DNA of 64,000 nucleotides. Source: Nitrosopumilus sp. GTDB taxonomy: Archaea > Thermoproteota > Nitrososphaeria > Nitrososphaerales > Nitrosopumilaceae. Where the stretch lies: positions 960,001-1,024,000 of the forward strand of contig OZ252243.1 in assembly GCA_965249555.1 (NCBI GenBank), read 5' to 3'. Position numbers and translations under genes: made by a program. Shown here in pieces: positions 25,758-63,848 of this stretch (positions are counted from its first letter, which is position 1; the number at the start of each line of letters is the position of its first letter). Below the pieces are notes generated by a model. The model saw only the letters and a list, made by a program, of their open reading frames with translations, had not been told where the DNA came from and did no database searches.

Positions 25758-26399
25758 TTAGAGGAATTTAGCAGTAGTTGTTTCTTGAGTTTCTGTTGGA
25801 ACTGAAGGGAACATTTGACCGGCAGAAGTCTCTGCAACAGCAGCAGCTTCTTTGAGAATACTTTCAGATTCTGCGTTAGTAGTTTCATCAACTCCAAATG
25901 CTGTATCTCCTGAGAAACTTTCTGTCATAAAGCCTCCAAGCATTTCTGCCATTTGACCAATTTCTTGCTCAGCCCCTGGCATTATTTTTCCAAGAGATGA
26001 TTTTAGATTCTTCATCAAACCCATTGTTGGCATGATTGCTACTACAGTATCTCCAAGATCACTGCAGGTAGTTAAGCGTAATTCAATTTGTTCTAATGCT
26101 ATTCTAGCACTACTCAAAATTTTGGTAACTTTTCTTACTTCGGCTAACTCATTACCAAGAACCTTGCTGGTTTGAATATCATGTTTTTGTGTTGCCTCTA
26201 CAATTCTTTGAAATAATTTTGTATCACGTTCTTGTAAGTTTGTTAGCATTGAATCTAATTTTTGAATTTGTAATTGTAATTTTTTAATTCCATCTTGAAC
26301 TCTGGGTTTTAGTGGGCCTTTAGGCTTGAGTGTATCATTAATTTTTTCAGTAATACCGGGTTGTGACTGTTTTGACCATTTACTAGACAAATTAGGCAT
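25758..26399 (-). CDS. cdvB: ESCRT-III/Snf7 family CdvB paralog
   Basis: Aligns by eye with 4073..4723 (LKPR.Q, ELAE.RK, LEQI.LRLTT..DLGD, FPSVP); likely start MPNL at 26399. Confidence 0.88.
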   Translation of the reverse strand: MPNLSSKWSKQSQPGITEKINDTLKPKGPLKPRVQDGIKKLQLQIQKLDSMLTNLQERDTKLFQRIVEATQKHDIQTSKVLGNELAEVRKVTKILSSARIALEQIELRLTTCSDLGDTVVAIMPTMGLMKNLKSSLGKIMPGAEQEIGQMAEMLGGFMTESFSGDTAFGVDETTNAESESILKEAAAVAETSAGQMFPSVPTETQETTTAKFL

Positions 26400-26569
26400 A
26401 AGTTTGATTTTAAAATATGTACTTAATTTCAAGGGTGAATATTGGTTTACAGTAGATAAAATTTTGCTAACAAAAATTAAACATTAGTGGTTTTCTGAGG
26501 CTAGATTATGCAATATGTTCCCATTAATTTAGAAATTTATTTTTATAATGGAATTTAGAGTGTGTTTCA

Positions 26570-27001
26570 GTGAATAAAAAAATTGTAATAATTCCCATGC
26601 TTATGATAATTATAATTTTTGTAGCAATTTTTTCATTAGATCCATCTGAAAAAAATGATAATGTAATATTTCATGTAACTCTTGCAGATCCTGACCTGTA
26701 CAATAATGGAATCTATACTGATGTATTTACTATTGATAAAGGAGAATATTCTTTTAGATTTGTTCCAAATGGGAGTAGTCCAGAGATCTTATCAATAACA
26801 TTAAATGGAGAAAATTTTGATTTTTCTGAAGATTTTATGCTTGAAAGTACATCACACCAAACTGGAACCTCTGAATATTTTACGTGGAAATATGAGGAGC
26901 AAGAAATTATTTGGATTACTGAGATGCAAGAAATTTCAATAATTATCAATCCAAATGGAAATGTAATGGGTTCAGTATCTGTGGATATTTTAGAAAAATA
27001 A
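26570..27001 (+). CDS. N-terminally anchored hypothetical protein
   Basis: N-terminal hydrophobic helix followed by a beta-rich domain. Confidence 0.7.
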   Translation: MNKKIVIIPMLMIIIIFVAIFSLDPSEKNDNVIFHVTLADPDLYNNGIYTDVFTIDKGEYSFRFVPNGSSPEILSITLNGENFDFSEDFMLESTSHQTGTSEYFTWKYEEQEIIWITEMQEISIIINPNGNVMGSVSVDILEK

Positions 27002-27002
27002 A

Positions 27003-27135
27003 AGGCGTATGCCCCTTTACTGCAGAACTTTGAGAGATTTCCTCTCGTGGTCAGTACGTTATAACGTCTGATTGCCTTTTTCGTTCTGCGGGGCTACGCA
27101 GTTTTAGTCGATAGGAATTATATCCTTCGGCATCA
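27003..27135 (-). ncRNA. Candidate ~130-nt multi-branched non-coding RNA
   Basis: GC-rich island with nested helices (27005-15/27090-99, 27022-28/27083-89, 27032-36/27042-46, 27049-60/27063-76) plus a hairpin at 27109-27129; TATA-like element upstream and T-tract downstream on the minus strand. Confidence 0.6.
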
Positions 27136-27268
27136 TATAATATAGTAACTTTAACTATTTAACATTTCATATAATAAATTATAAGATTTTATGATATTTT
27201 ATAAAATATTTTGTGCCTATTTAGAGATATAGTTGATCTATAAATTACGAATTTTTGTGTAAAAAATA

Positions 27269-28012
27269 TTGAGATTATCTGGAAAAATTGCATTAGTAAC
27301 TGGTGGAAGTCGTGGAATAGGATTTGCTACAGCAAAAATTTTATCAGAAAATGGAGCAACGGTGGTAATAACAGCAAAGGACCAGGATAGATTAGAAAAA
27401 TCTGTATTAGAGATTCCAAATGCAGTTGGTATTACAGCTGACATTAGAAAAAGAAATGATGTAAAAAGTGTTGTAAATAAAACGATTGAAAAATTTAGTA
27501 GATTAGATATTCTTGTAAATAATGCCGGAATTTTTCCAAAGATCAAACTATTACACGAGATTGATGAAGATGAGTGGAATGAAGTTTTAGATGTGAATCT
27601 TACAGGACAATTTAGATTTACTAAAGAAGCAATTCCTCATTTGAAAAAATCAGGTGGTTCAATAATTAACATTTCATCAGACGCAGGATTAAAAGCATAT
27701 CAAGGATTTAATGCTGATGCATATTCTGCTTCAAAAGCTGCTTTAATTTTGCTAACAAAATGTTGGGCACTTGAATATGCTAAATATAAGATTAGAGTTA
27801 ACTGTATTTGTCCGGGAGTAGTAGATACAGATATGACAAAGCCATTTATGAAAACTCAGAAAGATAGAGAATTCATGGATAGTGAACATCCAATAGGTAG
27901 AATTGGTCAACCTGAAGAAGTAGCAAAAGCAGTAATGTATTTTGTATCAGATGATGCATCTTGGACTACTGGTGCAATACTTGCAGTAGATGGAGGAGAA
28001 TCAATTAAATGA
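27269..28012 (+). CDS. Short-chain dehydrogenase/reductase (FabG-like)
   Basis: TGGSRGIG, NNAG, YSASK, VDGG. Confidence 0.92.
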   Translation: MRLSGKIALVTGGSRGIGFATAKILSENGATVVITAKDQDRLEKSVLEIPNAVGITADIRKRNDVKSVVNKTIEKFSRLDILVNNAGIFPKIKLLHEIDEDEWNEVLDVNLTGQFRFTKEAIPHLKKSGGSIINISSDAGLKAYQGFNADAYSASKAALILLTKCWALEYAKYKIRVNCICPGVVDTDMTKPFMKTQKDREFMDSEHPIGRIGQPEEVAKAVMYFVSDDASWTTGAILAVDGGESIK

Positions 28013-63774: not shown

Positions 63775-63848
63775 GGGATCGTAGTCTAGCTTGGTATGAT
63801 ACTAGTCTGGGGGACTAGTGATCGCAGGTTCAAATCCTGCCGGTCCCA
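63775..63848 (+). tRNA. tRNA-Pro(GGG), intronless, CCA not encoded
   Basis: Acceptor GGGATCG/CGGTCCC, anticodon stem CTAGT/ACTAG with loop CTGGGGG, T arm GCAGG-TTCAAAT-CCTGC. Confidence 0.96.

Follow-up and report, generated by a model that had tools for sequence, protein, structure and literature searches.

The window, i.e. the whole 64,000-nucleotide stretch of Nitrosopumilus sp. DNA analysed here, carries on its minus strand (positions 27133-26994) a gene of approximately 135 nt for a putative structured RNA. This region is at present unannotated "intergenic" DNA, and the AUG at the 5' end of the gene could mislead gene callers. Its GC content (0.48 at positions 27000-27099) clearly exceeds that of the flanks (0.16-0.29), as expected from the original prediction, made from the sequence, of a GC-rich island in AT-rich DNA. 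Read along the minus strand from position 27162 to 26994, the locus consists of the box TTAAATA, 22 AT-rich bases, an AUG, a small hairpin, a UAA, a 4-nt spacer, a 96-nt domain, an unpaired C and the oligo-U end UUUUAUUUUU. The coordinates of these elements, and of the neighbouring protein gene, are given in Table 1.

Table 1. Features of the RNA locus in the window. Percentages of paired cells refer to an alignment of 101 copies that was fitted to a model of the same structure, and are somewhat inflated for this reason.
Feature	Position	Strand	Remarks
Putative archaeal TATA box, TTAAATA	27156..27162	-	A-rich BRE-like stretch (AAAUG) just before it; role suggested by sequence
Mini-frame, AUG CCG AAG GAU AUA AUU CCU AUC GAC UAA (MPKDIIPID*)	27104..27133	-	start 27133-27131, stop 27106-27104; putatively translated
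5' hairpin P0, within the mini-frame	27109..27129	-	-7.0 kcal/mol here; mean -6.9 over 101 copies
Spacer AACU, from stop codon to P1	27100..27103	-	3 nt in 39 copies, 4 nt in 56, 5 nt in 6 (n = 101)
Three-way-junction domain	27004..27099	-	P1-P4; computed fold and covariation
P1, GCGUAGCCCC with GGGGC-AUACGC	27099-27090 with 27015-27005	-	97.7% of cells paired
P2, GCAGAAC with GUUCUGC	27089-27083 with 27028-27022	-	97.6% of cells paired
P3, inner hairpin	27076-27049	-	92.3% of cells paired
P4, inner hairpin, loop G-N-R-A-U	27046-27032	-	98.8% of cells paired
3' bulge AGUAAA between P1 and P2	27021-27016	-	
Unpaired invariant C	27004	-	
Oligo-U end UUUUAUUUUU, presumed termination signal	26994..27003	-	overlaps last codons and stop of the convergent gene; terminator-like match
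Convergent 143-aa protein gene	26570..27001	+	stop 26999-27001 inside the U-tract of the RNA

The TTAAATA box had already been noted upstream of the element, and the comparison of related copies revealed how strictly it is placed: it starts exactly 29 nt ahead of the conserved AUG in 84 of the 101 copies, and ATAAATA or TTATATA occupies the same place in another seven. Across the genome, TTAAAT and TTTAAA likewise reach their maximum at position -29 relative to the start codon ATG of long ORFs (n = 1387), which is the geometry of leaderless transcripts and indicates that many genes of this genome are leaderless; the Shine-Dalgarno route is used as well, since a minority of the ATGs show an enrichment of GGAG/GAGG 9-15 nt upstream. 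The TATA-to-AUG spacing of the RNA gene is the same as that of the leaderless protein genes of the same genome. The transcript would have the A of this AUG as its 5' end, at a distance of 29 nt from the TATA box. This conserved first base lies at position 27133, with an extra in-frame AUG at 27136-27134.

At the opposite end, a run of at least four T residues occurs no more than 25 nt after CGCC in 72 of the 101 copies. The original prediction, which had the element end in GCC and a U-tract, placed it correctly at 27003..27135, but these limits are slightly too short, as the U-tract extends to about position 26994.

Fold and covariation

The computed structure comprises the weak 5' hairpin P0 (mean -6.9 kcal/mol) and, in contrast, a strong junction domain (mean -38.4 kcal/mol), in which the interrupted stem P1-P2 closes a three-way junction with the hairpins P3 and P4 and with A-rich joiners, e.g. 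GAAAAA. All of these parts had been drawn by the original prediction, and its fold is identical to the minimum-energy fold. The energy of the latter (-46.2 kcal/mol) was not reached by any of 200 dinucleotide shuffles (-25.65 +/- 3.64 kcal/mol; z = -5.65).

Since the opposite strand folds as well (z = -6.70), energy alone cannot reveal which strand is transcribed. The minus strand is indicated by the promoter box, the U-tract and the excess of G-U over A-C combinations in the paired columns: among the 101 relatives, G-U/U-G cells outnumber A-C/C-A cells by 193 to 37 (119 to 13 in the junction domain alone), although the alignment used for this count was fitted to the minus-strand model, which somewhat favours the result. 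These observations also bear on the idea that the element is a structured 3' UTR of the 143-aa gene, encoded on the plus strand. The folding of that strand and the position of the element, right after the stop codon of the gene, agree with a 3' UTR; nevertheless, such a role is highly improbable given the G-U excess, the conservation of the promoter box and U-tract on the minus strand, and the presence of paralogues that lack the 143-aa gene.

Standard pairs fill 95.4% of the 3105 cells in the paired columns of the 101-copy alignment, a value somewhat inflated by the fitting of this alignment to a model of the same structure; sliding the 3' partners by 1-3 columns lowers it to 34-52%. Compensatory changes, i.e. 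changes on both sides of a pair, were found in 24 of the 31 pairs (20 of 26 in the junction domain and 4 of 5 in P0, the cells of which are paired in 88.1%), and none of 500 shuffles reached any of the five measures applied. An independent MAFFT/RNAalifold analysis of 54 copies gave an identical set of 31 pairs, of which 10 have compensatory changes. The fold is thus supported by homologues and covariation, the kind of evidence that had been proposed as a check of the original prediction.

The helices at the base of P1 (GCG...CGCC), in P2 (GCAGAAC/GUUCUGC) and in P4 (GAGAG-G-N-R-A-U-CUCUC) are nearly invariant among the 101 copies, with GAGG-N-AAU-CUC of P4 invariant or nearly so, whereas the joiners and hairpin P3 vary freely. 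A mutual-information scan revealed the helices and one further pair in P0, where columns 13 and 20 covary (A-U vs U-A), and found no long-range tertiary pair. The loop of P4 (G-N-R-A plus one U) may dock on another helix, judging from its sequence. A pairing of the 3' arm of P0 with the 5' arm of P4 was also considered and rejected: it fits only one type of paralogue and does not covary. It is also worth mentioning that the segment CUGCG-UAGCCC-CGCAG (27101-27086, minus strand) is self-complementary and could form early, as an alternative to P1 and P2.

Distribution and gene context

The RNA was detected with blastn (E <= 10) in all 36 genomes of the same genus, in 34 of them at E 6e-13 or better. 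Many of these genomes contain two or three copies, and the genome from which the window originates has one. In other families of the order, blastn gave only chance-level matches. With a covariance model built from 54 same-genus copies, the RNA was found in 134 of the 151 genomes of Nitrosopumilaceae and in 25 of the 27 genera (three unpublished genomes, G137, G152 and G153, are included in the 134), with 1-4 copies per genome; among the good-quality genomes of the family, 107 of 115 carry the RNA. The same model matched 22 of 23 family genomes, compared with none of 127 genomes from the 19 other families of the order.

Genus g34, which gave no match in the main scan, has a diverged copy at the syntenic site (38.5 bits with the filters off, 68.4 bits with the broader model R2), and becomes the 26th genus. 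This form (L259, positions 1376-1500; L260, positions 1379-1503) has a GC content of 63%, a P1 that starts with GUG in place of GCG, and a 5' hairpin of -13.7 kcal/mol; the GAGG-C-AAUCUC hairpin is retained. Model R2 found no copy in three genomes of genus g26, the genomes of which are 0.8-0.9 Mb in size, or in 37 genomes of the other families. Tandem copies, separated by approximately 300 nt, occur in one genus (L117 of genome G194, positions 2001-2120 and 2302-2423, and contig C184 of genome G172); both mini-frames of these pairs are 3 nt shorter.

An exact-pattern scan of a collection of species genomes returned at least 119 stretches. The matches listed belong to Nitrosopumilus, Nitrosarchaeum, Cenarchaeum, Nitrosomaritimum, unspecified Nitrosopumilaceae/Nitrosopumilales, marine group I and Thaumarchaeota, as well as to a few metagenome bins labelled otherwise. 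The 25-nt core pattern had no match in viral contigs.

Immediately downstream of the RNA gene lies the 143-aa gene, which is transcribed convergently, as had been stated in the original prediction. Its product has an N-terminal membrane segment, gave no match in Pfam or NCBIfam, and falls in unnamed Nitrososphaerota clusters of the Atlas. With this protein as the query, homologues were found in 5 of 5 genomes of the family of the RNA and in none of 55 genomes of other families; none was found in g26. The next gene downstream but one, at positions 25758-26432 (minus strand), encodes an ESCRT-III paralogue of the CdvB1/B2 cell-division type, whose match to NCBIfam NF041005 (E 1.6e-44) stays below the curated cut-off. 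This gene occupies the second position in 27 of the copies examined.

In 50 of the 69 copies that had sufficient flanking sequence for an analysis of the context, the 143-aa gene is the next gene downstream, on the opposite strand, mostly at a distance of -2 to +12 nt. Due to this tail-to-tail overlap, the U-tract of the RNA is made of the last codons and the stop of the gene. The remaining 19 copies are located beside unrelated genes (PurP-like, TFB, PGI, a Fur-family gene, CorA, SOD), and several of these copies also have a convergent next gene. Where the downstream gene is co-directional, it has its own TATA box behind the RNA; together with the unrelated neighbours, this argues that the RNA is a unit of its own. 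For the two paralogues located next to CorA and SOD, cis-regulation of the respective gene was considered and rejected, because each of the two has a separate TATA box behind the RNA.

This gene arrangement raises the possibility that the RNA is a cis-antisense partner of the 143-aa gene. The transcripts would end inside each other, the small RNA, or its read-through, would control the 3' end or the stability of the 143-aa mRNA, and its structure would double as a two-way terminator module; indeed, at 27086-27105 of the plus strand TTTT follows a terminator-like hairpin, at which the mRNA of the 143-aa gene could end, inside the RNA gene. The convergent, abutting order recurs across genera, including the most diverged one, the U-tract coincides with the last codons of the gene, and the RNA and the protein have the same range (both are confined to the family and neither was found in g26). 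However, besides the 19 copies that lie beside other genes, there is one genome in which the RNA and the 143-aa gene are 11 kb apart, and the G-U pairs point to selection on one strand only. Moreover, the abutment may reflect compaction, since these small genomes leave very little space between genes and generally keep their gene order. We therefore consider cis-antisense control unlikely as the main function of the RNA. As a side role, an antisense effect at the 3' end of the 143-aa gene is possible and would be compatible with the interpretation that we favour below.

Taken together, the conserved promoter box, the selected fold and the family-wide presence show, at the level of comparative sequence analysis, that the locus is a gene-like unit.

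The leaderless mini-frame

The first 30 bases of the RNA form a nine-codon frame that runs from the conserved AUG to a stop codon located 3-5 nt ahead of the outer helix P1. The frame escaped notice in the original prediction, the term "non-coding" of which may therefore be not fully right. The AUG is present in 97 of the 101 copies (with the A in 99, the U in 97 and the G in 98), and the two bases preceding it vary. In all 101 copies the frame is open and the stop lies in the same column, as UAA, UAG or UGA and never as UGG, although the copies are related by descent and such counts overstate their independence. Over the 100 distinct copies, UAA was found in 66, UAG in 25 and UGA in 5, with 4 copies uncounted. 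One of the two alternative frames is open in 17 of the 101 copies and the other in 74, and shuffled sequences are open in 56% of cases. The mini-frame is 30 nt long in 98 copies; its only length changes are deletions of 3 nt, which shorten it to 27 nt in the other three. The pattern shows, as far as an alignment can, that the start-stop frame is under selection for openness and fixed length.

No conservation is seen in the peptide. The 101 copies encode 70 different ones, and the entropy at the three codon positions (0.85, 1.08 and 0.91) reveals that third positions are no more variable than the others, i.e. that the mini-frame is not under selection of the protein type. Its variation is located in the loop of P0, as would be the case for a purely structural element. 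In addition, two lineages lack the start codon. A clade of paralogues (L029, L056, L058 and L059) has no AUG, and instead contains UUG or GUG one codon later; in genus g34 both the AUG and the stop are gone, the 5' hairpin is longer and the junction is kept. The mini-frame is thus dispensable. In a further copy the AUG is shifted one codon downstream. The 5' hairpin of AUG-less copies is not clearly stronger, with the exception of g34.

It is very unlikely, for these reasons, that the gene is a small mRNA with a functional nine-residue peptide, in which the junction would act as a 3' stabiliser. The conserved start, stop and length and the leaderless geometry would suit such an mRNA, but the peptides show no residue pattern beyond that imposed by the stem of the hairpin, the frame is conserved to a far lesser degree than the 3' domain, and it has been lost in g34.

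A more serious competitor is a purely non-coding structured RNA (a protein-bound scaffold or a base-pairing regulator), in which the conserved 5' hairpin and start-site preferences would have given rise to the AUG, the stop and the open frame between them as by-products. The absence of peptide conservation, the third positions that are no freer than the others, the concentration of variation in the hairpin loop and the two lineages that keep the junction without a start codon all fit this interpretation, and a random AT-rich stretch of eight codons is open 56% of the time. By-products would nevertheless hardly account for an AUG placed at the first transcribed base in 97 of the 101 copies directly behind variable bases, for a stop that switches among the three codons and never becomes UGG, or for indels of 3 nt only with frame +1 open in just 17 copies. 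Furthermore, in an organism that translates leaderless mRNAs, a 5'-terminal AUG should be read unless selected against. We regard the purely non-coding reading as possible, yet rather doubtful.

Comparison with known RNAs and interpretation

A search of the whole window against Rfam 15 at gathering scores, the first check suggested for the original prediction, matched no known family at the element. The only Rfam match, and also the only one found by ARAGORN, was a tRNA-Pro (GGG) at positions 63775-63848 (plus strand). At E <= 10 the region 26850-27300 yielded a single 12-bit chance match outside the element, and at E <= 1 nothing was found on the element in 13 diverse relatives. The RNA had been said not to be a tRNA, 5S rRNA, SRP RNA or RNase P RNA, and this holds. 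ARAGORN detected no tRNA or tmRNA at the element, and the loop of P4 has 5 nt instead of the 7 nt of a T-loop. The models of 5S rRNA (RF00001), SRP RNA (RF01857) and RNase P RNA (RF00373) had no match at the locus; the corresponding genes of this genome, all with scores above the cut-offs, are located elsewhere (76.7 bits for the 5S rRNA at positions 608988-609107 of G000, 101.8 bits for the SRP RNA and 187.6 bits for the RNase P RNA).

The RNA does not resemble the guide RNAs either. Box C/D sRNAs carry a C box (RUGAUGA) and a D box (CUGA), joined as a K-turn; here, the 5' UGAUG is UAAUG in 46 of the 101 copies and the next base is C or U, not A, there is no D box to pair with it, and the C/D families gave no match on the element (the only hit, sR53 with 22.6 bits and E 0.41, lies elsewhere in L113). 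H/ACA sRNAs consist of a hairpin with a pseudouridylation pocket and a K-turn or K-loop, and have an ACA box 3' of the stem. In the RNA described here the stem is followed by the invariant C and then by a U- or C-rich stretch without ACA, and Rfam gave no H/ACA match. On reading the sequence, no K-turn, T-loop or hammerhead core was found.

The original prediction considered the element to be an independent non-coding RNA or a ribozyme. Its independence is borne out by the promoter, the covariation and the unrelated gene contexts; the ribozyme part is not. A three-way junction with a conserved GNRA-like loop able to dock on the outer helix is reminiscent of a self-cleaving ribozyme. However, no Rfam ribozyme (hammerhead, twister, twister-sister, pistol, hatchet, HDV-like) matched at E <= 10 in the region 26850-27300, or at E <= 1 in the 13 relatives. 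The core motif of the hammerhead is CUGANGA...GAAA, and the joiners of the junction contain neither CUGANGA nor GAAA. A single-copy gene with a promoter and a terminator would also be an unusual setting, and self-cleavage is in our opinion extremely unlikely.

A cis-acting riboswitch had been thought unlikely because of the convergent neighbour, and the data agree: neither the window copy nor the 13 diverse copies matched an Rfam riboswitch, and there is no regulated downstream gene on the same strand in the 50 of 69 copies with the convergent 143-aa gene. A leader-peptide attenuator that controls downstream read-through has more in common with the locus. Attenuators based on short ORFs include the trp and his leaders, the nine-codon leaders of cat and cmlA, and the leaderless polycysteine ORFs of mycobacteria. 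Like these, the RNA has a very short frame (putatively translated), a strong structure close by and a U-tract, and a ribosome at the stop would disturb a helix; the alternative hairpin formed by the spacer and the 5' strands of P1 and P2 is a further similarity. In contrast to the attenuators, it mostly lacks a co-directional downstream gene or operon, which has its own promoter where present, and it displays no codon bias toward a sensed amino acid. With joiners and loops that vary and helices that are invariant, it is also the reverse of known aptamers. Control of a downstream gene, by a ligand or by a leader peptide, is for these reasons quite improbable.

Two groups of small RNAs are closer in organization. 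The RNAs HgcC, HgcE, HgcF and HgcG of Methanocaldococcus were reportedly found by Klein, Misulovin and Eddy in 2002, by means of a GC-content screen. They share with our RNA the setting of a stable GC-rich RNA gene in AT-rich intergenic DNA, with its own archaeal promoter and an oligo-T end. This likeness is restricted to the setting, as none of the Hgc models of Rfam matched and there is no similarity in sequence or structure; in addition, the host family is different and our RNA carries a leaderless mini-frame. The second group are the dual-function small RNAs of bacteria that contain a short frame (SgrS/SgrT, RNAIII/hld, SR1/SR1P). They too are independent small RNAs with a conserved structure and a short conserved frame, and the corresponding features were all found here, i.e. 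a promoter box and a T-run (which point to transcription), covariation, and the frame statistics. Unlike the bacterial RNAs, the archaeal one has only nine codons, is leaderless and encodes a non-conserved peptide. A short frame joined to a structured domain also recalls tmRNA, from which it differs by the lack of a tRNA-like domain (as judged with ARAGORN), by the AUG at the 5' end and by the lack of a CCA-type end. No tmRNA is known from Archaea.

Full-text searches on small RNAs of Nitrosopumilus/Thaumarchaeota yielded no description of this RNA, and passages of the articles PMC5069720, PMC13475601 and PMC3840354 deal with other RNAs. So far as the Rfam catalogue and the searched literature go, it is an undescribed RNA family.

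How might such an RNA work? The junction is most likely the working core, because all lineages retain it and because its helices show the invariance of a protein or ribosome contact, and not of a ligand pocket. It would most probably serve as a compact platform for a protein or the ribosome rather than as a sensor of a small molecule. The mini-frame would be translated from the first transcribed base, as any 5'-terminal AUG should be in an archaeon that translates leaderless mRNAs. In order to start, the ribosome would have to open hairpin P0 and, when it reaches the stop, 3-5 nt from P1, it would have to melt the lowest part of the junction, so that a folded core and translation would exclude each other. 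The act of translating would matter and the amino acids would matter little.

Hence the reading that we prefer is that of a stand-alone, two-domain small RNA gene, specific to Nitrosopumilaceae, in which the fold would be coupled to translation of the mini-frame, i.e. a translation-gated regulatory RNA. We hold this combined reading to be plausible, with our confidence about evenly balanced. A stronger version of it is more speculative: the RNA could be the first translation-gated small RNA of Archaea and an RNA class of its own, a switch operated by the ribosome, in which the mini-frame would decide whether or not the core is melted, and in which the availability of the core to a partner would report the translational state of the cell. 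Candidate partners of such a switch would be a family-specific protein, the ribosome (through the GAGG-N-AAUC hairpin) and the overlapping 3' end of the convergent membrane-protein mRNA.

With respect to the ribosome, GAGG-N-AAUC of P4 (27032-27046, minus strand) agrees with the complement of the 16S rRNA 3' end GAUCACCUCC (L139) at 7-8 of 9 positions, and possibly makes a contact with the anti-Shine-Dalgarno sequence. However, the invariant A at the sixth position is a mismatch, N is U in only 18 of the 101 copies and no start codon follows, and we regard mimicry of a Shine-Dalgarno sequence as no more than a weak lead.

The new family described here is well supported: it occurs in nearly every genus of Nitrosopumilaceae, shows many compensatory changes and is missing from Rfam, and a family model can now be built for it. 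Its layout is unusual, in that a rigidly conserved fold adjoins a leaderless mini-frame whose peptide may vary freely. If the mini-frame is indeed translated, the RNA would offer a simple system for the analysis of leaderless initiation and of the coupling between the ribosome and RNA structure in archaea. Nitrosopumilaceae are among the most abundant archaea of the ocean, where they drive nitrification, and to our knowledge almost nothing is known about regulation at the RNA level in this family. If the translation-gated reading is true, it would mean that an RNA class has become fixed in globally abundant marine ammonia oxidisers.
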